From a virus: a stretch of DNA of 64,000 bases. Within the stretch, counting starts at the first letter, position 1. Each line of letters begins with the position of its first letter. Below the pieces are notes generated by a model, which had not been told where the DNA came from, did no database searches, and saw nothing but the letters and a program-made list of their open reading frames with translations. This document shows positions 17,772 through 30,633 of the stretch, piece after piece. The DNA lies in the IMG/VR virus record IMGVR_UViG_3300035070_002905, positions 32,001 through 96,000 of that record, one strand, 5' to 3'. Position numbers and translations under genes: made by a program.

Positions 17772-17815
17772 GAAGGGCACCCGTCTGGGTGCCCTTCGCT
17801 TACTGCTTCTTTTTT
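17772..17815. terminator. Terminator between convergent operons
   Basis: GAAGGGCACCC-GTCT-GGGTGCCCTTC. Confidence 0.8.
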
Positions 17816-17817
17816 CG

Positions 17818-18348
17818 CTAATGTATACCAATCGACACCGACTTGAATATCACATCGGTTATCGACTGACCGTCGTTCTGTACTATGGCAAAGCGAATCT
17901 TATCGCTCGTGTTAAGTTCCAGCGAGAACTCTACCGACTGAGTGGAATCCCGGTTATTACGCGAGTGTTCGAACATGGTAGGCAGTCCGGCGATACGCCA
18001 GGTTGCTCCACCGTCTCTACTTACGAATGGCGTAATTGCCATCTCTCGGTTGGCCTGGGCTAGGTTAACGATAAACCTGCCGATTATGACGAATGGATTC
18101 ACGGAGAATCCACCTTGATATGTAACAGTGCCGTCTGTGGGATCTACAGTAAACTGATTCCCTTGGACTAGCGTGAACTCTGCAGGGTTGGCTACTTCAA
18201 TCTTAGAGTATAGACTGTAGGTATTCACCGATCCGCCCGAGGTAATCAGGTCGGTTATAGGTGTGGTTACTGCTGTATTCTCCCCGGTCAGCCCGAGGAT
18301 AGTTCGCATGTGTGGACTGGGTGCTCCGATGACCGTTGATAGAATCAT
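17818..18348 (-). CDS. Hypothetical beta-rich (probably virion) protein
   Basis: Last gene of the late-strand block; T/V/S-rich. Confidence 0.6.
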   Translation of the reverse strand: MILSTVIGAPSPHMRTILGLTGENTAVTTPITDLITSGGSVNTYSLYSKIEVANPAEFTLVQGNQFTVDPTDGTVTYQGGFSVNPFVIIGRFIVNLAQANREMAITPFVSRDGGATWRIAGLPTMFEHSRNNRDSTQSVEFSLELNTSDKIRFAIVQNDGQSITDVIFKSVSIGIH

Positions 18349-18653
18349 TACACCCCCGAATGAGTGGCCTTTAGGAATATAGGAGCTGCACCATCGTAAT
18401 CCGTTACGGTAACGAATAGCGGGCTCTTGAATCCTAGGACTACTTCAACTGAAAAATCTGTGGTATGTGTACCGCCGACAGGAAGTGTAGTCACAGGAGA
18501 TTTCTCTCCGTTTACTTCCAACTGCGTCTGCAGCTCTACTCGAGTGGTTGTACCCCAATCTCCTAGACAGGTCACGATCTCACGACCGGTAATCGAACTG
18601 TCCAACAACATGAATTCTGATACATCCCCTTCTATTTTTAGCTCTCTTGCCAT
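18348..18653 (-). CDS. Hypothetical (probably virion) protein
   Basis: SD GGAG precedes the ATG at 18653; the ORF-track start at 18743 runs through an RNA structure. Confidence 0.6.
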   Translation of the reverse strand: MARELKIEGDVSEFMLLDSSITGREIVTCLGDWGTTTRVELQTQLEVNGEKSPVTTLPVGGTHTTDFSVEVVLGFKSPLFVTVTDYDGAAPIFLKATHSGV

Positions 18654-18666
18654 ATGCTTTCTCCAT

Positions 18667-18743
18667 AAAAGAAAAGGCACCCGAAGGTGCCTCGATGAGT
18701 GGCCAGCCCGAGGTAAAGGAGGAAATCCCCGAACCGGCGCCAT
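18667..18743 (-). ncRNA. Candidate small RNA/leader with an anti-Shine-Dalgarno hairpin loop and its own terminator
   Basis: Class B promoter motif at 18749-18755; 12-bp stem (4 G-U pairs on the - strand) around loop AUUUCCUCCUUUA; then AGGCACC-UUCG-GGUGCCU-UUUCUUUU. Confidence 0.55.
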
Positions 18744-18748
18744 ACTCT

Positions 18749-18755
18749 TATTTTA
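18749..18755 (-). promoter_or_regulatory. Class B (late) promoter-like motif TAAAATA
   Basis: The same motif lies upstream of - strand genes at 21068, 24817, 26457, 30686, 34644, 55687 and 57394, and on + at 57417 and 57499. Confidence 0.65.
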
Positions 18756-18760
18756 CTACA

Positions 18761-21025
18761 CTATAAGGGGTATGCAGTAGGTGTACCGTCGGAAGCTACT
18801 CCTAATCGGTACCTGCTCCCGTTAGGTGCAAGCATATCTACTCCATCATACGCGAATATCTCTCGGAATCTATTAGTGACAGAGCCTAGATCGTATGCAT
18901 TATTAGAAGTAGGAGTTACGCTAGTAGTTTCTAGGTTAAGATTCCCGAATCTGCGGCCTGGGCTATAGTCTTGACTTGGGACGTCTGTAAATTTCACACC
19001 CCCTATGGCATTTGCGAATCCAGATACTCTAGCATTATTCTCCGAGTTGTACACTGTAATGAACACTGATGTGTTGGCCCGGAACTGTGCTATGGATACT
19101 TCCTGAGATACAACCTCGTCGGTGTGTAGATTGAATACCGTATCGAAACACTGATCTCTGGTTAGTGACTGAGTTACTAAATGGTTGACGGATCCGATTT
19201 GCTTAATATCAAATGTACACCTATAGGTAGCGAAGCCTTGGTCTGGACTAGATCCGTCATCTTTCCACGAGGTATTGTTATAGAGTGCACTTACCGTAGT
19301 CCCACCCGTCTGATGTTCATAAGTACCCTGGAAGCTTACATTAGTGCATATCCCTTGGATAAAGGAATTGATAGCTACTGTATTGGCATTGTATACATGA
19401 ACGTTAGAGATTACTGCGTTCGCACCTCGGTCGAAACGGATAGGCTGCCTGATGTTGTTGCCTGATACATTAGATATGGTACATGATTGAGAGTCGGCAG
19501 AGTGGGGGTACCCTGCTCCATTACCGAATATAGCTATTAGTTTCTCGCAGTCTGCGCCAACTACGTTAGATACTACTACGTTATTCTTTCTAGATCCGGT
19601 ATACCCATTAATAGCGAATACTGTATCGACCAGCGTACAGTACAATCCGTCTATGATAATATTGGCAGGTGCACCGGTATTACCCTCTACTATAACACCC
19701 CTACCTCCTCCACGTACAGCATCCCAGGATGCGTTGCGTACTACAGTATTATAGACACGTATTTCTGAAGTGTTATCACGAATGATAAACCCTGAGTTGG
19801 CTGCGAAATTACCACAGTCAATATCTAGATCGTGCACGTCGATATTCGTTGCATCCCACGCCATGAATACTGACTCGTATCCCGTAAGAATACCGGTAGC
19901 AATGAATGTACCTCTATTATAAAACTTAGTGTTACTACGGAACTCAAGTGCAGCCGATACATTATAAGTGCCTTCTGGAACAAATATATGTCCTGCCAGA
20001 TCTAGAGCAGCTTGAATAGCAGCTGTATCATCCGCTACACCATCACCTACCGCACCGAAGTCCTTGACGTTCACTACATCGGCAAAACGATCGCCTAGAG
20101 TACGGCTTACTGTAGCGCCGGTAGATGTAACTTCAGCTTCCGTAACGATGTTACTAATGATCTCTACGCGACGATTATACGTCAGAGTAGCTGCGGCACC
20201 GGCAGAGTCTACGGCACTAACCGTCAGAGTATCTCCGACTACATTCCAGCTCTGTACCGTGTAGGTATCAGTCCAGTTATTACCGTACTCCCAGAGGACT
20301 CCTGCAGTCTCTAGGATAGAGTGATTGCCAGTAGTACTTTCGACCATTACACCGTCGGCAAGCGTCCAGCGGTTCAGACGAAGTCCGTTAGCCAGCACCT
20401 GACGCTGACGTCCGGTAGCTTGAATCCAGTAAGCGTAGCTCTCTTGGGTATCACGGAAGCGATCGGATAGAGACTTAGTAGAAGTCCCATCGTTCACTAC
20501 CATCGAGTTCGGATCGACCCATGCCAGACGACCGCCCTGAACGCCCTCTAGGGTGGTTCCAGCCGGGAAGGTATGAGTTAGTCGGATAGACGTCGCAGAG
20601 ATCACTGAGTAGTCTACAGGAGTCTCTAGACGGCCTCGATCGACTAGTGGACCGGAAACGTATACTTCCAGACCGTCGGTCTCGATAGACGTGAAGACTA
20701 TATCAGTCTGTCCGTCGGTTAGCGTATGGCTTTCGCCCTGCGCCTTGTTGAATGGGATCTCGTTCGCCAGTGCACGGCCTACTAGAAGAAGCTCATCGCC
20801 TGCCGTAAGGGCAGTCGTTAGAGTAATCGTCGAGCCTGCAGCATCACGAGTATAATCCTGTGTCGCACCGAATAGTAGGCGGGCACCGTTTAGATAGACC
20901 TCTTCCGCCCCGTCGATGAACGTCAGGTCGAATACAGTCTCGCCGCCTACAGCTACAAACTGCTGGCGGTCGATGATAGAACCGGCGCTAGTATAGTCAC
21001 CGGTAATGTTACTTAGTCTTGCCAT
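18761..21025 (-). CDS. Tailspike / depolymerase-type receptor-binding protein
   Basis: DVVNVKDFGAVGDGVADDTAAIQAA followed by beta-helix-like sequence; repeated N-terminal VYLNG/DY modules. Confidence 0.85.
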   Translation of the reverse strand: MARLSNITGDYTSAGSIIDRQQFVAVGGETVFDLTFIDGAEEVYLNGARLLFGATQDYTRDAAGSTITLTTALTAGDELLLVGRALANEIPFNKAQGESHTLTDGQTDIVFTSIETDGLEVYVSGPLVDRGRLETPVDYSVISATSIRLTHTFPAGTTLEGVQGGRLAWVDPNSMVVNDGTSTKSLSDRFRDTQESYAYWIQATGRQRQVLANGLRLNRWTLADGVMVESTTGNHSILETAGVLWEYGNNWTDTYTVQSWNVVGDTLTVSAVDSAGAAATLTYNRRVEIISNIVTEAEVTSTGATVSRTLGDRFADVVNVKDFGAVGDGVADDTAAIQAALDLAGHIFVPEGTYNVSAALEFRSNTKFYNRGTFIATGILTGYESVFMAWDATNIDVHDLDIDCGNFAANSGFIIRDNTSEIRVYNTVVRNASWDAVRGGGRGVIVEGNTGAPANIIIDGLYCTLVDTVFAINGYTGSRKNNVVVSNVVGADCEKLIAIFGNGAGYPHSADSQSCTISNVSGNNIRQPIRFDRGANAVISNVHVYNANTVAINSFIQGICTNVSFQGTYEHQTGGTTVSALYNNTSWKDDGSSPDQGFATYRCTFDIKQIGSVNHLVTQSLTRDQCFDTVFNLHTDEVVSQEVSIAQFRANTSVFITVYNSENNARVSGFANAIGGVKFTDVPSQDYSPGRRFGNLNLETTSVTPTSNNAYDLGSVTNRFREIFAYDGVDMLAPNGSRYRLGVASDGTPTAYPL

Positions 21026-21078
21026 TTAGGAATTCCTTATGTTATGAGGTCGCGATCCTCGTATACATATTTTAGCAG

Positions 21079-21101
21079 AAAGCCCTCGCGAGGAGGGCTT
21101 T
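21079..21101 (-). terminator. Terminator (near-identical copies at 26466-26489 and 55698-55722)
   Basis: AGCCCTC-N5-GAGGGCT hairpin. Confidence 0.7.
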
Positions 21102-21105
21102 GGGT

Positions 21106-22569
21106 TTATATACCGAGATGCTCTTTGATACTTGCTATATCTTTAGCTTGACGTTGGATTATCTCCCCTTGAATACCGATGAATTCCTGGTACCCTATAG
21201 TATATACGTCTTCGCCGCCGTTAACTGAGTGATGTTGTAGTCCTGCAAAGTCCACGTTGTGTCGTAGCATGGCCTCCTCTACTTGCTGAGCTATAGCTCC
21301 TATATGGTACCTAGAACCCGACCTAGAGCCGTCTTTATCTACTGCGGTTACAGTGCCATCGGCATCCGTATCCGCGTATGACTCTCGATAATCCATACGG
21401 TATTGTCTCCATTCTATATCCATGAAGAATGCTATATGATCGTCTGTTAAAGACTTAATATCAATCTTATCGCGCCTATCAGAACGATCTTGAACTGCAC
21501 CATACGCGTATGTCGTAGTACCAGTAGTACCTAGTTGTATTTGATCATTACCAGTTACAGTAGAAGCCTGACCTATAGCCGTAGTTCTCGAAAACGCATG
21601 ATTCCTATTAGCCAGGTATCCTAGAGAAGAATTATACGTTCCAGTCAGACCCTCACACGCCTGTCGACCGAAGCCGGTATTGCCCGTCCCTACTCCTACT
21701 CCATATCCTGCACGATATCCCATCAAAGTAAGGTTGCTAGAGTCTATGGCAGAAGAGTCCCCTCTATATGCCGCCTGGTATCCTACTGCCGTATTATTAA
21801 TAGCGTTACTGTTTTCCAAGACTCTAGAGCCTATTGCAACGTTGAAATCAGAAGCAGTCGTGGCATTTCCGAGGGAGTAATCCCCTACCGCAACTTGAGA
21901 GTCTCCGTCAGATCCCAGACCTGCATGATATCCTACGGCAGTCTGGTTAGCGCCGTTACTCTGGTATCCAGATTGCTTACCTATAGATACTTTATTATTA
22001 CCGGTGGCCTGTTCACCTGCCCTCCACCCAATACCTACAGATTCCTCAGAGGTCGTAGTGTTGCCTGAATAGGATCCTACCCAAACACCTCTACCTCCGT
22101 TAAGATGGTTCCCCGTCTCTGCACCTATGGCAACAGTAGAAGATGCTCCCGTAGAGTCGTGCAGAGCTAGTCTGCCTACTCCAACTGAGTAACCAGAGTC
22201 AAAAGTACTAGAGGATATATCTGCATCTTGACCTGCCTGAATACCAACGAACACCCCATTCTCCCCAGTGGATCGATATCCTGCACGATATCCCACTGCA
22301 GTCTTCTGATCCCCTGAAGTTCTATCGGATACTCCGAATAGTCCGTTGTTTACTTGCCCACCATCGGTAGCGCTATATGCCACTGGAGTAGGGTATTCAG
22401 TCGGGTCGATGTACACATAATTCCCATATAAAGCATGTCCCGGCACGCTGTTTCTATAGAGAGTCCCGGGGTTTACAGTGGAATCTACTGTTACTACTCC
22501 ACCCCAAGTTATTCCGAATGAGGAGTCCCCTTCGTCAATCATTCGGTTATTTACTTTTGTTAAAGCCAT
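21106..22569 (-). CDS. Tail fibre with YadA-head-like repeats and C-terminal intramolecular chaperone (S74-like)
   Basis: Many xAVGYxAG repeats; SDRRDKIDI cleavage motif; GAIAQQVE; terminal coiled coil. Confidence 0.85.
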   Translation of the reverse strand: MALTKVNNRMIDEGDSSFGITWGGVVTVDSTVNPGTLYRNSVPGHALYGNYVYIDPTEYPTPVAYSATDGGQVNNGLFGVSDRTSGDQKTAVGYRAGYRSTGENGVFVGIQAGQDADISSSTFDSGYSVGVGRLALHDSTGASSTVAIGAETGNHLNGGRGVWVGSYSGNTTTSEESVGIGWRAGEQATGNNKVSIGKQSGYQSNGANQTAVGYHAGLGSDGDSQVAVGDYSLGNATTASDFNVAIGSRVLENSNAINNTAVGYQAAYRGDSSAIDSSNLTLMGYRAGYGVGVGTGNTGFGRQACEGLTGTYNSSLGYLANRNHAFSRTTAIGQASTVTGNDQIQLGTTGTTTYAYGAVQDRSDRRDKIDIKSLTDDHIAFFMDIEWRQYRMDYRESYADTDADGTVTAVDKDGSRSGSRYHIGAIAQQVEEAMLRHNVDFAGLQHHSVNGGEDVYTIGYQEFIGIQGEIIQRQAKDIASIKEHLGI

Positions 22570-22579
22570 TTGTTACTCC

Positions 22580-24775
22580 TTAATCTACTATCTTACCTAC
22601 ACCGAGTATACGCCACACACCCAGGTCGTTATACAGAGTGGCAGATGAATGTGCCCCTGCCTGATTACCTACGGTAAGACCTGTAGATCCAAAATCTTGG
22701 GTAGGAGTATCAGGTAGGCTTACTTGCCAGCTATATCCTATTAAATGTACTATGCGACCGTACTCAACTCCGTCTACGTCTATTTCACATCCAGTCTTAG
22801 CACTAGATCCACCCGTCAATCGATACCTATCGATACCTTGAGTTAGGGATACTACCTGATCATTACTAGTCAGCGATAGAGTGGAATCGTGGAATACTGG
22901 AGGTATTCCACCAGACCCACGTATCGTGTTAGTACCACCATCATATTGGATAGTAGAGGTGTCGTAGAGTCTTACTGGCTCGGTATCTGCAGTAGTAGCC
23001 TGACAATTTGTAACTCTTAACGTAGAACCGCCGCGCAGATATATGATCCTACTGAAAGTAGAGTTATTCATATATAGAGTAGAGCCTTCATTAACTTCTG
23101 CAGGTTCTAAGTCGATATCAAACCAAGTCATAGTCATAGTACCGCCACTAGATACTTCTATACCGTCATTTATCTGTGAACGTACCGTCGAACTTAATCC
23201 GGCACATCTAACCGTCCCTCCTGCACCTACAAATACTCCTAAGCTGCCTGCGCCTGACGAGAACACGTGATTTAACTGAGTTGCGTCAGTCTGTACCATT
23301 TGGATCAACCCGTATAGGCACTGTACGTTTCTGATTAAAGCGCCGCGCAAAGTTGAGTTAGATATAGTAATTACATCACCGTCTGTTAGAGTAACGATAT
23401 TATAATCACAGTTACGTATCTTAGAGTCCTTGGTGATCTCAAGTTGGCCGTTTGACTCAGTGTAGGCTCCGTATGTCGCGAACCCACGCCCATCGATGAT
23501 TGTCTTAAATACGTGAACGTAAGTATCAGTACGATGTGCAACCAGTAATCCAGAAGACTTATTTACTCCGTTACTCTGTATGGTTATACCGTTTATACCG
23601 ATGTTACCCTTCTGAATATATACACCGTATTTGTAATCGGAAGTAGTCTCTATGATTACATTTTCAGGGTTAGTCAGATTGCCACGTATAGTTATTGCAC
23701 CGTCTAACTCATCTCCGTTACTAGATGACCTGTATGCTGTAACCTTACCATATCCATATAGAATGGCAGCCCTAGCTTGACTTGATGCAGGCTCTACGCT
23801 TTCATTGTATAGACCATCGGCTAGTTGAATAGTCTGAGGATGATATATGATTTCAGGGATAGAGTTCCACGCCATTTGAACGGTCTTAAAGGGGTTGGCC
23901 TGAGATCCATCCCCTGCAGTATCGCTACCTGTAGGAGATACATACCAAGTCACTTCTTCAGTAGTCCTTCCTGCCTTTTGAGTAATATCGTATGTCCAAT
24001 TCTCCATGGTACGAGGAGCTATAGACCCTGCAGCTACTGCCAGAGCCTCCGAAACGTCGGTACCCGGTAGCTCGCCTGGAGACACTGGACGGTAGAACGT
24101 TACGCTTACCTGCGCGCCTGCAGGAGGAGCCTCGGTGAACGAGATCTGTCCCGGAGCGGTAGTATAGCTGTCTACTGGAATCTGCACGACGCCGTCTACC
24201 GTTACCAGGAAGCTGGTCGCCGGAGATGAGTCTGCATGCGGTGCGTCGAATGTCGTCTTCGTGCCATCACCTAGTTGTACCGGTTGAAGTACTGGAAGCT
24301 GCTGCTCGGGTACATCTTGGCTAAGACCGGCGAAGCGGCTGTACGGACGGTAGGTTAGTGCACCTGAACCATCTCGTACCTGTACGTCTAGACGATCTCC
24401 TACCGGAGTACCGATTGATACTACCGTGAACGACTCGGTCGCCTCATCGTCCGGCCACCACAGTTGACCGAGGTGGAAGAATGTCGAGGTCTTGCCTGCC
24501 AGATCTACCTGCCAGACACCGGTAGCGTCCTTAGAGAATGGAGCGATTGTGGCACCTACTACGCCGACGGTAGATTTACGCCCGGTCAACGCCTCTTGAT
24601 CGTCCATCTTAGGAACGAATACGTTGCCCGATGGAAGCGGGAAGCCTTCGCTTAGGAAGTCTCCTGTAGCATCGACTACTACGCCGTCGATCAGGGCTGG
24701 GTCCAGAACTCGCACTGGAGTCCCGGTAAGAATACTCGCCAGCTGCAGCTGCGCAAGTGTATTGAATACCTTCAT
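22580..24775 (-). CDS. Tailspike / receptor-binding protein
   Basis: GDGTKTTFDAP module; WYVSPTGSD..GDGSQANPFKTVQ; beta-helix-like body. Confidence 0.8.
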   Translation of the reverse strand: MKVFNTLAQLQLASILTGTPVRVLDPALIDGVVVDATGDFLSEGFPLPSGNVFVPKMDDQEALTGRKSTVGVVGATIAPFSKDATGVWQVDLAGKTSTFFHLGQLWWPDDEATESFTVVSIGTPVGDRLDVQVRDGSGALTYRPYSRFAGLSQDVPEQQLPVLQPVQLGDGTKTTFDAPHADSSPATSFLVTVDGVVQIPVDSYTTAPGQISFTEAPPAGAQVSVTFYRPVSPGELPGTDVSEALAVAAGSIAPRTMENWTYDITQKAGRTTEEVTWYVSPTGSDTAGDGSQANPFKTVQMAWNSIPEIIYHPQTIQLADGLYNESVEPASSQARAAILYGYGKVTAYRSSSNGDELDGAITIRGNLTNPENVIIETTSDYKYGVYIQKGNIGINGITIQSNGVNKSSGLLVAHRTDTYVHVFKTIIDGRGFATYGAYTESNGQLEITKDSKIRNCDYNIVTLTDGDVITISNSTLRGALIRNVQCLYGLIQMVQTDATQLNHVFSSGAGSLGVFVGAGGTVRCAGLSSTVRSQINDGIEVSSGGTMTMTWFDIDLEPAEVNEGSTLYMNNSTFSRIIYLRGGSTLRVTNCQATTADTEPVRLYDTSTIQYDGGTNTIRGSGGIPPVFHDSTLSLTSNDQVVSLTQGIDRYRLTGGSSAKTGCEIDVDGVEYGRIVHLIGYSWQVSLPDTPTQDFGSTGLTVGNQAGAHSSATLYNDLGVWRILGVGKIVD

Positions 24776-24844
24776 GATATCTCCTTGTTAAGCCGGATGC
24801 CTCCGGTTTGTATTTATATTTTAGAGGCACCAGGATATTTGCAA

Positions 24845-26428
24845 TTAGGCGGCTATAGGACCGAAACCTTTCCACGTACCAGGAGTACCTGCGGTAACGC
24901 ATACCCAACCTTCATACCCACCAGCAGTGACTACTGAAGGGTCTGCATATACCTTATCCCCTACTTTCCACGTTGCCGCAGATCCTGGATTACCTACATC
25001 TGGCGGGTTAAAGTAGAAACCATTGACTATCTGTGCTATGGTCGAGGATCCGTAGTAGGCGAACTGCATATCCTGAGGCAGAGCGTTAGTATCTACTACT
25101 ACTCGCTGCCCGAACTGCTCCCCTTCTGCACTTATAAAAGCTCTACACGCAGTAGAGTTAAACACGGTATTACCTGATATAATACCGAATGAGTTAGCTG
25201 GTAGTGCAGGAGCTCCTGATGCGGTCTGAATGATATGGTTAGTACCACTCCCTAGACCGCATCTCTCGAATGTGTTATTAGAAACATTAAAACTTATAGC
25301 ATTCATGCGTATACCTGCACCTTCTATATTAGATAAAAGATTACCGGATATACTCAGGGTCTTTTGCGTCAGAGATCTGTTGTATAGGATCCCCGCACTA
25401 GATCCTGCATTAGAGTTGATAATAATGTTATCATCAATATTAACGTACTCTCCGCTCGATACTGCTATACCATAGCCGTCATATCCCTCTACAGTGTTAC
25501 CTACAACCTTACAGAATCCTACGTCTTCCATCAGGCATTCTATGCCGTACACACCCGACCCTTTGACCATATTACCTTCTATCAAGTAATCTCGCATATC
25601 CTTAACCCAGATGCCTGATCCGGCAGTAGTCTCTATGAAGTTATTTCGGATTATATGATTGCCATTGGCGTTTAATACCGGAGCGTTACCTGCGTCGAAT
25701 CGTATCCCTCTAGAGCTTGCAGGATTGACTGCATCACCTACTACATTGGTAATATGATTACCTTCTACATGAATCCTCTCAAAGATGTGTCCTACACCTT
25801 CGATGTTAATTCCGCCAGTACCCCAGATATTTACTATAGTATTATCCTGTACCCATATATCCGTGCCTGCAGATATAGCCACTCCATTACCGAAGTTGCC
25901 TATGGGATCGCTAGAGTCACCTATATTATAAATAGTGTTTCCTCGTATACGTACATCTGAAGGTGCCACCCCTACTGTCCCATATCCACAGTAGATACCA
26001 ACTCGATATGCGTCGTGGACTATGTTGTTCTCTATTAATATACGCTTAGATCCAGTGGTCACGTGTATAGGGAATGGGTCTCCTGATGTATAGGAGTACG
26101 CGTCTTTGTTTCCGTCAAACTCCAGCATAGTTATAGTTACGTCTGAAACTGTATCCATACGAAACTGGGCTCTAGATGTAGTAGCCCGTAAGATAGCACC
26201 TTTACCGTATAGACAAGTTAGGCTGGGTACAGCTATCGGATCTGAGTACATGTATACTCCAGGGGGAAATTTTACATGCCCACCGCTACTCACCGCCGCC
26301 TGAATAGCCGCAGTATCATCCGTTACGCCATCTCCTACGGCGCCAAAGTCTTTCACAGAGACGATTCCAGTTGACTCCGGTGTCAGTGCCTGGTAGCCTC
26401 TATCTGCTAGATCACGTGATCTTGTCAT
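24845..26428 (-). CDS. Tailspike with short N-terminal peptide
   Basis: MTRSRDLA then VSVKDFGAVGDGVTDDTAAIQAA; parallel beta-helix repeats; GWVCVTAGTPGTW tail. Confidence 0.85.
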   Translation of the reverse strand: MTRSRDLADRGYQALTPESTGIVSVKDFGAVGDGVTDDTAAIQAAVSSGGHVKFPPGVYMYSDPIAVPSLTCLYGKGAILRATTSRAQFRMDTVSDVTITMLEFDGNKDAYSYTSGDPFPIHVTTGSKRILIENNIVHDAYRVGIYCGYGTVGVAPSDVRIRGNTIYNIGDSSDPIGNFGNGVAISAGTDIWVQDNTIVNIWGTGGINIEGVGHIFERIHVEGNHITNVVGDAVNPASSRGIRFDAGNAPVLNANGNHIIRNNFIETTAGSGIWVKDMRDYLIEGNMVKGSGVYGIECLMEDVGFCKVVGNTVEGYDGYGIAVSSGEYVNIDDNIIINSNAGSSAGILYNRSLTQKTLSISGNLLSNIEGAGIRMNAISFNVSNNTFERCGLGSGTNHIIQTASGAPALPANSFGIISGNTVFNSTACRAFISAEGEQFGQRVVVDTNALPQDMQFAYYGSSTIAQIVNGFYFNPPDVGNPGSAATWKVGDKVYADPSVVTAGGYEGWVCVTAGTPGTWKGFGPIAA

Positions 26429-26494
26429 TTTGTTTCTCCTTATGTTCAGTATACCTTATTTTACGAAAAAGCCCTCACGAGGAGGGCTTGGGGT

Positions 26495-26545
26495 TTAGTC
26501 GACGGACGCGCCGTCAATCATTCTGTTATTTCCTTTTGTTAACAT
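26495..26545 (-). CDS. 16-aa mini-ORF MLTKGNNRMIDGASVD (copy of the fibre N-terminal peptide, or gene remnant)
   Basis: SD TAAGGAG; matches MALTKVNNRMID of 21106..22569; same downstream terminator. Confidence 0.6.
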   Translation of the reverse strand: MLTKGNNRMIDGASVD

Positions 26546-26555
26546 TTATTGCTCC

Positions 26556-28715
26556 TTAATCAACTCTGCCGGCAATACGTTTAATCTTAAAAACTGAACC
26601 AGCCTTTAAAACACAATTCGTACTTTGGGTGACGACTTCTAGTCGAACAGTGTTATTCGGGTTGATCTGCCTACGTGTTGATAGCGTAATACTCTGATAG
26701 TCGGCATCAGCCGGGTTTGCGTAAGTACGAGTTAAGTTAGAGTTTACCGATCCAATCTTTAACTCCGCCCATCGTAGGCCGTCACCTAGGAATGAACCAT
26801 TAAACTCCACTTCGTACGTACTAACCATATCTCCATTATCCATGCCTTGAGTGTTGCCCCAAGGAGAGTTGGTTTCTACGGTATTGAACGTTATGATATT
26901 AGCTCCACTCGCTAGTGGAATATCTGTATTACCTACGTAACAAACAGCGTATGGTTCATTAAAAGAGTCGAAGTTAATGTTGGCGAATCCATCGGAATCA
27001 ATACGGTCTGGTATCAGAGGTTGACCAGATGAGACGTATGCATTACGGAAGTCTACTTTAGCGAAGCCCGTGATACTGAAGTATACGCTAGAGTTATCAC
27101 CTCCTGGCAAGGAACAACCTTCGAACGATACATAAGTTCCATCAATATCGTACAATTTCTGATTTGAACTGTTGTCGTAACCAAACAACTTCAGGTTCAT
27201 ACCATTAACTTCCATTGTCTCAGTACCTCTAGCATAAAACAATTTTGCAACAACAACTGATGCGTCAGTAAATAAACTGTTCTCTGCTCCACACGATGTA
27301 AGTGTTGTACCTAAGCAAGTGTTGAAACTGTAAGCATATGGAGTGTCACCTGAAGTCACGCCCCAACCCCAATCATCTACTGTAGCATTTGTAAATGCTG
27401 AGTAAGATAGTCCGAAGAAGCTCCAACCATTTAACACACGAGACGCACCACAGTTGTTAACTGTCAAGCTTGTACCTGAAGCAGTCTTTGTACCGATAGT
27501 GGCGTGGTTGATAATGTGATGAGCATTACGGAAGTCTATTGACTCTAATAGTGTTCTGTAGATATCGTTTGTATGAATACCCGCATTAACATATTGGAAC
27601 TCAATATCACTCAGGTGTGAATGAGCGAAAGATGGCCCATAGATACCGCTAATAGTGTAGTCATCAAACAACGTATCTGGTGTATGACCCTTAACACGGA
27701 AGTCTCGGAATGTCAAACCCCATTGAGCAGTGGCATTAGCTAAGCCTCGGCCTTCATCTAAATCGGCACCATCAGTGGCACTTGCTAGTCGACGAGAAGC
27801 AGCGATCATAAAGATACAGTCTTCATTGTAAGTGTAGCCACGAGTACCTGCTCCGTTTAACGCAGAGAATGTAGCATTAAGCTGTAGGCTGTAGTTATCC
27901 GCGCCTTGGAAGATTGTTGCGTACTTACCAGCACCCTGTATAACGATACCATCACATTCGTACATCTGAATAGCATTAGAGACGATATAGATTCCGGCGG
28001 GGAAGAAAAGCGTGTTACCGTAAGTGATGTTCCCTTTAGTTGTAATGAAATCCACTGCCGCCTGAATAGCCGCAGTATCATCCGTTACGCCATCACCTAC
28101 TGCACCGAAGTCCTTGACGTTCACTACGTCTGCCGCTCGGTCTGCTAGAGTACGTGCAGTAGTTCCTCCGGTCGCCGTCGCATAGCCTAGACTAACGTCT
28201 GTACCTTCAGCTACATCGGTAGTTACCGGTTTGAAGTACGTTACGTCGATCTCGGCTGCAGCTGCAGGAGCTGTAGTAAAGATGATCTGTCCGGGCGCCG
28301 TAGTATAATCAGTACCCGCACGCGAGACTAGCCCGTCGACTACCACGAAGAACGCCTGTGGAAGTTCGGCTGAAGTCCCCGGAGCATCGAAGGTAGTGGT
28401 CGTACCGTCACCGGTCTGACGCGGCTGGATTAGCGGTGTAGCAGTAGCTGCAGTGATCTCACGTGCCCATAGGCCATTACCTAGCTGATAGTCTGCTACA
28501 GCCGTCTGGATTAAATAATCGCTAAGCGGTGAGATTACTTTAACGTAATCCCCTAGTCCTAGCGCCGTGCTGCCTACCATCGCGGCAACATTGTCGAATA
28601 CATTTGTGATTTGACGTTTAGAAGACGTCCACTTTATGCCGTCGTAGGCGTAAGTGAATTGTCCTTCAGTGTACGTCTGTCCAACCACTGGGTTGGACGG
28701 AAACGTTAGTGCCAT
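26556..28715 (-). CDS. Tailspike / receptor-binding protein
   Basis: FPSNPVVGQTY..YDGIKW, GDGTTTTFDAP module, NVKDFGAVGDG motif. Confidence 0.85.
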   Translation of the reverse strand: MALTFPSNPVVGQTYTEGQFTYAYDGIKWTSSKRQITNVFDNVAAMVGSTALGLGDYVKVISPLSDYLIQTAVADYQLGNGLWAREITAATATPLIQPRQTGDGTTTTFDAPGTSAELPQAFFVVVDGLVSRAGTDYTTAPGQIIFTTAPAAAAEIDVTYFKPVTTDVAEGTDVSLGYATATGGTTARTLADRAADVVNVKDFGAVGDGVTDDTAAIQAAVDFITTKGNITYGNTLFFPAGIYIVSNAIQMYECDGIVIQGAGKYATIFQGADNYSLQLNATFSALNGAGTRGYTYNEDCIFMIAASRRLASATDGADLDEGRGLANATAQWGLTFRDFRVKGHTPDTLFDDYTISGIYGPSFAHSHLSDIEFQYVNAGIHTNDIYRTLLESIDFRNAHHIINHATIGTKTASGTSLTVNNCGASRVLNGWSFFGLSYSAFTNATVDDWGWGVTSGDTPYAYSFNTCLGTTLTSCGAENSLFTDASVVVAKLFYARGTETMEVNGMNLKLFGYDNSSNQKLYDIDGTYVSFEGCSLPGGDNSSVYFSITGFAKVDFRNAYVSSGQPLIPDRIDSDGFANINFDSFNEPYAVCYVGNTDIPLASGANIITFNTVETNSPWGNTQGMDNGDMVSTYEVEFNGSFLGDGLRWAELKIGSVNSNLTRTYANPADADYQSITLSTRRQINPNNTVRLEVVTQSTNCVLKAGSVFKIKRIAGRVD

Positions 28716-28743
28716 TTGTTACTCCTTTGGTTAAGTTCTCTGT

Positions 28744-30633
28744 TTATCTAGCCCTATAGGAAAAAGAGCCGCCAATTATCACGGTCGGTGATGCAGGTAT
28801 ATCTGCATCACTTAGAAGTGTCTGACCGTCAGGTTTGTATAATGTAATTACAGCGCCCCCGCCAGTTAAAGACATAACTCCACTCGTACTCGCAACGCCA
28901 CCAGTAAAGTTTTGATATCTAACTGAGGCATGCGCGTCCTCATCCACATTAATAGGGAATGGCAATCCCTGTATAGTACAAGATCCGGTCTGGGATCCAA
29001 CTGCGTTAACGTACATAGAAAAGTTAACTGTAACCATGTCATCAATTCTACTCCATGTTCCGCTTTGCTTAACATAAGCAATTCCAGAACTAGATCCCCC
29101 AATAAACAACTCAGGGGTCCATTCACCTTGTTGTATCGTTGTTATTAGGTTATCACGTCGATAGTCATGTAATTCAGGGATGATTTCAGTATAGAGGCCA
29201 TTCGGGCCATCATAGGTGTACTTAGACGTACTTGGCTTTGTTACATACATTGACGGAAATCTAAAATAGGTCGGCGGGTTAGTCCAATGAATTTTTGCAT
29301 CATCCTTTAATATCACGGATTCTTTAAAATAATCCACTGGAGATACCAATGGTAAGGGCCTATCCATCTCGCCACTGATAAATGTTATATCATCACCAGC
29401 CATTGCACTAACCATATACACGGGGTGCGTTGGAGTCTGTCTGTTTAAGTCTTGCCACTTGAAAAATGATCTGTGATTTACTACGGTTACTTTGTTATTT
29501 CCCTCGAAGTTGAAATAAATACCCTTCTCGACTGGATAGTTTGCATCAAGAGGGGTTAGCGTAAATCCTTCATTCCCACAGGATACCAGTGTTAAACACG
29601 TTGCATTTCTAAATGTAAAAGCCGCCTTATATGGGATATCACATCCGCAACCAACTATCTCAGAATATGTATGACCGAATATGTATCCGCCTAGGCCACA
29701 CCAAAGGGCCTCACATCCTTTGAAGTTTGTTGTTGTACCGCTCTGTGTCTCTATCGTTCCATACCCCTGAAAGCTTGTAACCTCAGATAACCATGGCTGC
29801 TTCATAAATAGCATCGTGCCTGTATTGTGGCAGCATACGTCCCTAATAAAAACGCTGTCTCCAGTTGAATAGTAAACGCCGTACGTATTCTGTTGCGAGT
29901 CTAATCCACCACCGCTTATATTTGGGTACCCAGTAGATATGTTCCCTCTGAGTGCGATATTTTCTAGTCTTTGATTTCCCGAGTGATATCTAGTTAAATC
30001 AGAAGGGTAATCAGGATGACGCTGATTATTGTGCATTTGAATTATCGAGTCGTTACCAGCTTCATCAAGGTTATTGGTACTTTTCCATATCGTACAAACC
30101 CACTCAGTTGCATCAATAGTTGGAGTCTGGCTACCAATTAGTGATTTATAAGGAGGAAGAATGATCGGATCGTGAATTTCGTAAAGACCCTCTGGAACAA
30201 AGGTAACAGCATGATTCGAGATGCAAGCTCTAAACGCAGGTTCCCAATTATCCCCCACCCTCGAATTCTCATAATCTAAAACATTTCCGATATCTGAAAA
30301 TCTATCGTAAAGTGTTCTAGGCGTATTACTACCTGCCGCCGTCACTAGGATCTCGTTACCTACTGCGTCGACCAGACCCTGAGGAGCATCTTCGACCCAT
30401 TGGCCTTGAGAAGTCCCTTCGTTCACGTGCCAGATATACGTCAGGCCGTTAGAATCGTCAAACCACTGGAGTCCCGGCTCGGGTGCTGCCGGTGGAGTAG
30501 CGCTCTGGATTTTAACGGCAGAGCTACCGTATTTAATAACTGATGTCCACTTAGTACCGTCCCACGTGTAACGGTAGTCTCCATACTCGTAGACCTGCCC
30601 TACGATCGGGGCGGTTGGGAAGCTAATAGCCAT
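28744..30633 (-). CDS. Tailspike / receptor-binding protein
   Basis: FPTAPIVGQVY..WDGTKW, QWFDDSNGLTYIW, FVPEGLY; GEWTP..Y.KQSG.W.RIDDMV C-terminal domain. Confidence 0.8.
   Translation of the reverse strand: MAISFPTAPIVGQVYEYGDYRYTWDGTKWTSVIKYGSSAVKIQSATPPAAPEPGLQWFDDSNGLTYIWHVNEGTSQGQWVEDAPQGLVDAVGNEILVTAAGSNTPRTLYDRFSDIGNVLDYENSRVGDNWEPAFRACISNHAVTFVPEGLYEIHDPIILPPYKSLIGSQTPTIDATEWVCTIWKSTNNLDEAGNDSIIQMHNNQRHPDYPSDLTRYHSGNQRLENIALRGNISTGYPNISGGGLDSQQNTYGVYYSTGDSVFIRDVCCHNTGTMLFMKQPWLSEVTSFQGYGTIETQSGTTTNFKGCEALWCGLGGYIFGHTYSEIVGCGCDIPYKAAFTFRNATCLTLVSCGNEGFTLTPLDANYPVEKGIYFNFEGNNKVTVVNHRSFFKWQDLNRQTPTHPVYMVSAMAGDDITFISGEMDRPLPLVSPVDYFKESVILKDDAKIHWTNPPTYFRFPSMYVTKPSTSKYTYDGPNGLYTEIIPELHDYRRDNLITTIQQGEWTPELFIGGSSSGIAYVKQSGTWSRIDDMVTVNFSMYVNAVGSQTGSCTIQGLPFPINVDEDAHASVRYQNFTGGVASTSGVMSLTGGGAVITLYKPDGQTLLSDADIPASPTVIIGGSFSYRAR

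Follow-up and report, generated by a model that had tools for sequence, protein, structure and literature searches.

The locus described here lies in a 172-kb uncultured phage genome held as an IMG/VR record, of which bases 32001-96000 were analysed as one stretch of 64,000 nucleotides (hereafter the window; sites beyond it are given in the same numbering). All features of the unit are on the minus strand (Table 1). The preliminary description of this DNA had placed there a late promoter motif, a hairpin, a terminator capped by UUCG, a GGAG Shine-Dalgarno (SD) sequence and the ATG at 18653, and each of these was found where it had been placed. Six tailspike/tail-fibre genes lie in a row on the minus strand (18761-30633), and the unit follows directly on the downstream side of this row. 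The nearest of the six, the pectate-lyase type tailspike gene, has no terminator of its own ahead of the one beginning at 18693. On the other side of the unit follow a 101-aa gene, for which the gene calls of public assemblies also use ATG 18653 as the start, and a 176-aa gene that is translationally coupled to it through a TAATG overlap.

The two proteins encoded downstream are short, are all-beta and match no family. The 101-aa protein had no PHROG match and gave a low-confidence beta structure model, and the models of the two proteins (pLDDT 50 and 66, the former that of the 176-aa protein) were too weak for fold searches. A feature and structure atlas search with the 176-aa protein returned weak look-alikes, viral proteins of 150-200 aa, some in clusters with C1q domains. 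A C1q/TNF-like jelly-roll is therefore possible as a lead only, and the protein may be a small trimeric fibre head. No match to cultured phages was obtained with 900 nt of the region by blastn, a tRNA/tmRNA scan was empty, and the phage carries no S21 gene, a possible partner of a mimic of the 16S tail.

Table 1. Positions of the features of the unit, its flanking genes and related sites
Feature	Position	Strand	Remarks
Tailspike gene, pectate-lyase type	18761..21025	-	stop TAG 18763-18761
Late ('class B') promoter core A-G-TAAAATA	18749..18757	-	TAAAATA itself 18755-18749
Predicted transcription start, A of GTA = A of ATG	18743	-	from the conserved (G)TA
ATG	18743-18741	-	
Extended 5' hairpin	18695..18743	-	AUGG paired with linker UCAU, lengthening the 12-bp stem
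Core hairpin 1	18702..18738	-	12 bp including 4 G-U
5' arm of hairpin 1, GCCGGUUCGGGG	18738-18727	-	
13-nt loop of hairpin 1, AUUUCCUCCUUUA	18714..18726	-	anti-SD core between U runs
3' arm of hairpin 1, CCUCGGGCUGGC	18713-18702	-	
Intrinsic terminator	18667..18693	-	8-bp stem, UUCG loop and U tract; also detected by terminator scan
Terminator stem-loop, GAGGCACC-UUCG-GGUGCCUU	18693-18674	-	U tract to 18667
SD GGAG (18664-18661) and start codon (ATG 18653), 101-aa gene	18651..18664	-	
101-aa gene, all-beta protein	18348..18653	-	dN/dS 0.16
176-aa gene	17818..18348	-	TAATG overlap with 101-aa gene; dN/dS 0.15
Strong terminator closing the two-gene unit	17772..17797	-	
TATAAT/TATAAG motif with hairpin, three sites	132652-132671, 139524-139545; 105508-105483	+, +; -	window numbering
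Hairpins of the T7-like clade	L124/L002, L126-L136		scaffold-capsid spacer, ~150-260 nt before capsid ATG
Hairpin of Roseobacter phage CRP-143 (Autographiviridae; nearest cultured)	L137:1020-1075		8-bp hairpin, loop UUUUUCUCUCCUUUU, same spacer

Structure of the predicted RNA

The preliminary description had argued from the four G-U pairs in the 12-bp stem that the minus-strand RNA is the folded species, and folding bears this out. Over the same 126 nt the minus strand reaches -40.8 kcal/mol and the plus strand -31.7 kcal/mol, with hairpin 1 lost on the plus strand. The predicted RNA of 77 nt (18743-18667) folds at -33.7 kcal/mol (z = -3.7), a stability matched by none of 200 shuffled sequences. 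We conclude that a real, strand-specific RNA element is present on the minus strand.

In the predicted RNA the linker between hairpin 1 and the terminator (CACUCAUC) takes part in the extended 5' hairpin, which leaves no free 5' end, and of the whole molecule only the 13-nt loop is single-stranded. CCUCC lies inside this loop, where a longer part of the 16S rRNA tail (CCUCCUUU) stands between U runs. The loop reads the same in both directions.

Nothing rose above noise when the region was compared with Rfam at E values up to 10 (the best hit, Atu_C8, scored 16 bits against a gathering score of 50), nor did its relatives and the look-alike loci described below give anything meaningful at the same threshold. 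An exact 21-mer of the hairpin had no match in metagenome contigs. Genome-wide, hairpins with CUCC in the loop number 43 against 44.5 in shuffled sequences, so they are not enriched. A second hairpin with CUCCUUUACC in its loop, on an 8-bp stem, is located beyond the window at 70628-70659 on the plus strand (genome 102628-102659); it lies inside a 395-aa gene and was judged a chance match. The sequence CUCCUUUA was at one point considered for its presumed resemblance to boxA, the NusB/NusE site. This reading was dropped, the match being poor and T7-like phages not being known to use Nus factors.

The terminator has the anatomy of an intrinsic terminator, with a GC-rich stem (five G-C pairs in the 8 bp), a short loop and a U tract directly 3' of the stem, where UUUUCUUUU follows. 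Its shape is shared with the terminators that end other late units, for example at 116229-116208. Three other late-unit terminators on the minus strand are nearly the same sequence as one another, GCCCUCCUCG(C/U)GAGGGC (21098-21082, 26488-26470 and 55722-55704). Each of them directly precedes a TAAAATA promoter, and in each CCUCC spans the 5' arm and the loop.

Late promoter and predicted start

Of the 36 TAAAATA copies in the genome, 16 lie between genes and in the same orientation as a gene whose start codon is no more than 110 nt away. Permutations of the motif with the same composition give at most five such copies, the overlapping AAAATAT excepted. TAAAATA is a genuine late motif. In most of the good copies (G)TA follows after 4-6 nt, and by comparison with these other late sites transcription probably starts here at A18743.

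The motif is 96 nt from the start codon, while most other copies are 21-53 nt from theirs, the hairpin and the terminator making up the difference; the terminator follows the motif after 62 nt. At most other late sites the usual order is terminator and then promoter, whereas here the promoter comes first, and no other late motif in the 172-kb genome has its strong terminator on the downstream instead of the upstream side. Motifs of the TATAAT or TATAAG type 15-25 nt ahead of strong terminator-like hairpins were noted at three sites beyond the window (Table 1), and these may be further promoter-proximal stop units, of an early class.

The order of promoter, hairpin and terminator implies, as the preliminary description had proposed, a predicted RNA of about 75-77 nt as the main product. 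The explanation that we favour, while giving it a little less than an even chance, is that the unit makes a small RNA by promoter-proximal termination, that it also limits downstream transcription, and that the RNA acts by SD pairing. The late promoter would fire at A18743 and, judging by the anatomy of the terminator, most polymerases would stop at 18667-18670. The product would be an RNA of about 77 nt with two helices and one open stretch, the loop AUUUCCUCCUUUA. The 101-aa and 176-aa genes lack a promoter of their own downstream of the terminator; transcription into them would be restricted in the same step, and they would be reached by read-through only. Some read-through must occur, because the downstream genes are under purifying selection. 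A C1q-like 176-aa protein would fit a minor fibre or tip component that is needed in low copy.

Conservation in related phages

A search of a large protein database recovered two relatives of the 176-aa protein, with 94% and 79% identity, which led to Logan contigs (loci L007 and L008). The source samples of the two contigs are SRR14864987 and SRR27204694. Three large protein searches found the same two relatives only, and IMG/VR protein-pattern scans with the 101-aa protein, the 176-aa protein and an SspB-like neighbour found none. In L007 and L008 the 101-aa/176-aa pair and the convergent SspB-like neighbour are syntenic with the window. The upstream fibre gene is unrelated in each: L007 has an Mtd_N and Peptidase_S74 fibre in this place, and L008 a protein of 317 aa. 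The homology of both with the window begins at the promoter, exactly at AGTAAAATA. The fibre-gene breakpoint thus coincides with the late promoter (window 18757, L007:3593, L008:3588), a pattern suggesting that receptor-binding genes are swapped as cassettes at regulatory junctions.

From this point the promoter, hairpin 1 and linker are identical between the window and L008 over 63 of 63 nt, and likewise in L007, the loop included. By comparison, identity between the window and L008 is 75-76% in the two genes and 73% in the next intergenic spacer. Synonymous divergence of the downstream genes is near saturation (dS 0.92-1.06) and dN/dS is 0.15, from which it follows that the two genes are functional. 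With neutral sites so close to saturation, the 63-nt identity is far beyond chance; even at the coding-region rate its probability is 0.75^63, or about 1e-8. A single recent crossover does not account for it, since diverged sequence follows directly. At the level of these alignments, which comprise two independent lineages only (the window and L007 are near-identical here), the unit is shown to be tied to the downstream operon and not to the upstream gene, and to be more tightly constrained than the neighbouring proteins.

These comparisons bear on whether the block has any function as RNA. It could instead be a junction for the exchange of tail-fibre cassettes, or a tailspike terminator beside a promoter-like motif that arose by chance. 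The upstream fibre gene does differ in all three phages, with the breakpoint right at the block, and the terminator at 18693 is the only one available to the tailspike transcript. However, two crossovers within the block would be required to leave identity over 63 nt with immediate divergence downstream, the asymmetry of the G-U pairs speaks for an RNA of one strand, the motif fits the late consensus including the GTA, and the loop recurs in phages without such cassettes (see below). We regard an absence of RNA function as improbable.

The preliminary description had also suggested an attenuator read from the ATG at 18743, and an N-terminally extended protein starting from the same codon would amount to a related proposal. 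The codon coincides with the predicted start of transcription, its frame is that of the 101-aa gene in the window and in L007, and leaderless initiation is possible in principle. In L008, however, the terminator is 2 nt shorter, which shifts the frame by 2 nt, so that the 30-codon extension no longer joins the gene in frame and its ORF runs for 41 codons before stopping within the gene. The proposal fails on this point, the extension being kept in frame in the window and L007 only while the loop is conserved in all three. The ATG moreover is not preceded by an SD and is taken up in the extended stem (AUGG with UCAU), the public gene calls pass it over in favour of ATG 18653, and 30 open codons are expected by chance in about 24% of cases ((61/64)^30). 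A peptide or extended protein starting here is very hard to credit.

The terminator has changed in another way than hairpin 1. In L008 it is a 7-bp GC stem (AGGCGCC/GGCGCCU) with the loop CACGU followed by U6; only 16 of 27 nt (59%) are identical to the window, yet it still folds. In the sequences compared, the terminator is conserved for shape and hairpin 1 letter for letter. The covariation that the preliminary description had looked to across related phages did not materialise in hairpin 1 among the three phages, the stem with its four G-U pairs being as invariant as the loop. RNAalifold on the three sequences likewise gave no compensatory pair; MAFFT had misaligned the L008 terminator, and single folds were used in place of that alignment. 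An invariant stem exceeds what pairing by the loop alone would need, and hints at contact with a protein or with the polymerase.

It is here that the main rival to the small-RNA explanation arises, namely that the unit serves to regulate read-through. A phage or host factor, or RNA polymerase itself, would recognise hairpin 1, and this would decide whether the terminator is passed, the short RNA being a by-product and the anti-SD appearance of the loop serving protein binding or being incidental. The logic is that of lambda PR'-qut-tR' or of put in phage HK022, which consists of two stem-loops and acts on host RNA polymerase. In architecture only, the unit resembles put and the nut-type sites of lambda, having a conserved structured RNA after a promoter and before a terminator that has to be passed. 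A conserved promoter-proximal element followed by a strong terminator and then by genes under purifying selection without a promoter of their own is what such control would look like, and a wholly invariant hairpin and linker next to a drifting terminator are typical of a recognition site that is read in its sequence. Unlike put with its two stems, however, the unit has only one hairpin ahead of its terminator. In the window, L007 and L008 no conserved pairing that competes with the terminator was found; GAGG in the 5' arm of the terminator could pair with CCUC of the loop, an option lost in L008, which reads CAGG. Read-through control of this kind seems to us unlikely, though it is a serious competitor.

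Predicted pairing of the loop

Under the small-RNA explanation the loop would most likely pair with SD regions in an A-rich context, such as AAAGGAG or GGAGGAAA. Its targets in trans could be mRNAs of the phage or of the host, among them the few read-through transcripts of the operon to which it belongs. The U runs would extend the pairing into A-rich sequence on either side of the SD, which looks like a design for binding SDs in general. The best predicted partners are generic GGAGG and AAGGAG sites, and no private ribosome-binding site (RBS) tag matching the loop was found in the phage.

The preliminary description had cast the RNA as one that masks strong SDs of host or early phage mRNAs late in infection. 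Trans-acting SD masking by the predicted RNA is plausible, but the selectivity was not borne out: plus-strand genes, which are mostly non-structural, are not predicted to pair more strongly than the virion genes of the minus strand (p = 0.13). AAGGAG, the RBS type of a third of the minus-strand genes, matches the 3' half of the loop. Pairing with the late RBS type of the phage itself would be no weaker than pairing with other types, and a selective benefit is for that reason not obvious.

Pairing in cis, with the GGAG downstream, had been put forward as a switch. This SD pairs with the loop through GGAG/CUCC only, over 4 bp at -6.4 kcal/mol, which ranks it 162nd of 243 RBSs of the phage and below the genome median, and the terminator intervenes between loop and SD. 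The cis switch has no specific support at this locus. A broader version of it would have the unit act as a leader, in which the 5' hairpin protects the end of the RNA and a pseudoknot-like lock between loop and SD tunes translation of the 101-aa gene on the read-through mRNA. The fully paired 5' end of the predicted RNA would suit such a leader, and other late leaders of the genome likewise open with small GC hairpins. Beyond the poor pairing in cis, most transcripts should stop short of the SD. The remaining evidence on this leader comes from other phages.

The loop in other phages

IMG/VR was searched for exact matches to the loop together with its closing pairs. Most of the matches were RBSs on the opposite strand, and hairpins on unrelated stems were also returned. 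Counting stems of at least 7 bp, there are 4-5 independent families among about 90 contexts, whereas the rate observed in these loci themselves, 0.0041, would give 0.36.

In one of these loci, L004, the stem is 11-15 bp long and the loop is 8 nt before UAAGGGAG and the start codon; loop and UAAGGGAG can pair over 8 bp, with no terminator in between. In L002 and L005, from T7-like phages, the hairpin lies between the scaffold and capsid genes. In L033, L092, L086 and L054 an outer stem encloses the loop hairpin and a second hairpin capped by GAAA. The resulting three-way junction of about 60 nt (L092:1249-1308, L033:725-785, also L086 and L054) has an outer stem GGGGUA/UACCCC and the loop AUUUCCUCCUUUA, L033 and L092 differ by compensating changes in both of its inner stems, and it sits between convergent ORFs, one of which it overlaps at the final codons.

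Relatives of the L002 capsid gene were then fetched regardless of whether a hairpin was present. Every lineage of this T7-like marine clade carries a lineage-specific stem with a loop that contains CUCCUUU between the scaffold and capsid genes (Table 1), the loops being AUUUCCUCCUUU(A/G), AUUUACUCCUUUG, GUUUCUCGUCUCCUUUA and GUUUCGUCUCCUUUA. A loop-anchored alignment of seven of the hairpins gave 95% pairing and changes on both sides at all nine pairs; the seven were picked for forming hairpins, and the alignment is only illustrative.

These loci bear on the explanations above in different ways. For the cis leader, L004 offers 8 bp of loop-SD pairing free of an intervening terminator, and in six of the seven T7-like loci the best partner of the loop is 16-24 nt after the hairpin. 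An SD-like purine tract follows the hairpins of this clade at the same distance of 16-24 nt. However, the pairing energies in the T7-like loci are no better than with shuffled downstream sequence. On balance we think it distinctly unlikely that the unit of the window is a leader acting in cis. Read-through control leaves the recurrence of the loop in T7-like phages unexplained, as their single-subunit polymerase is not known to use such factors.

A wider proposal is that the AUUUCCUCCUUUA loop, with its core CUCCUUU and carried on a stable hairpin, is a convergent and widespread phage device that displays the 16S tail at the head of late structural-gene transcripts and masks or seizes SDs, or else acts as a decoy for a factor that binds the tail. 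We hold this generalisation to be doubtful. No description of an anti-SD-loop RNA in phages was found in the literature.

Relation to known RNAs and implications

The closest phage precedents for the small-RNA explanation are in giant phages. In 201phi2-1 and phiKZ, 5'UTR-derived small RNAs that arise by premature termination, one of them upstream of a tail gene, were detected by ONT-cappable-seq, and such short RNAs upstream of late genes still have no function assigned to them (PMC11512511). The unit described here would share with them a start with a near-immediate terminator upstream of a late or tail gene, conserved in related large phages. It differs in that the RNA here is predicted only, and in that no anti-SD loop is known to be reported for theirs (PMC11512511). 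A relation to them in sequence or fold is not expected.

StxS is made at PR'-tR'; it acts in trans, and one gene on the transcript downstream is also repressed by it (PMC7547250). Like StxS and the 6S-type RNA of lambda, the predicted RNA would be a short product of a late promoter that is terminated directly downstream. In contrast to what is known of the present unit, StxS belongs to the Q antiterminator system of a temperate lambdoid phage, is bound by Hfq and processed by RNase E, and has a seed that is not anti-SD (PMC7547250).

For the proposed mode of action the nearest parallel is bacterial. RoxS/RsaE of the Bacillota use unpaired C-rich motifs to pair with the G-rich SD regions of many mRNAs (PMC4409812, PMC6158497). 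A C-rich motif is similarly held single-stranded here, as CCUCC in the 13-nt loop. RsaE/RoxS, however, have several C-rich regions and constitute an Rfam family, whereas the present element has a single loop and does not match the covariance model of that family. What would be new here is a predicted small RNA of a phage, made by premature termination, that bears a displayed copy of the 16S tail.

Little is understood of the regulatory RNAs that phages encode, and the unit is a clean, testable case, with a predicted RNA of about 77 nt whose single open loop nearly copies the tail by which the ribosome docks on mRNA. Although the phage itself is uncultured, the recurrence of the loop in the cultured Roseobacter phage CRP-143 makes bench testing possible. 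If the loop acts on ribosome-binding sites, it would be a simple and general means by which a phage steers translation, and would also offer a compact part for synthetic control of translation. If the wider proposal of a convergent device is true, unrelated phages, from this 172-kb phage to the T7-like marine podoviruses including CRP-143, would reprogramme translation late in infection.
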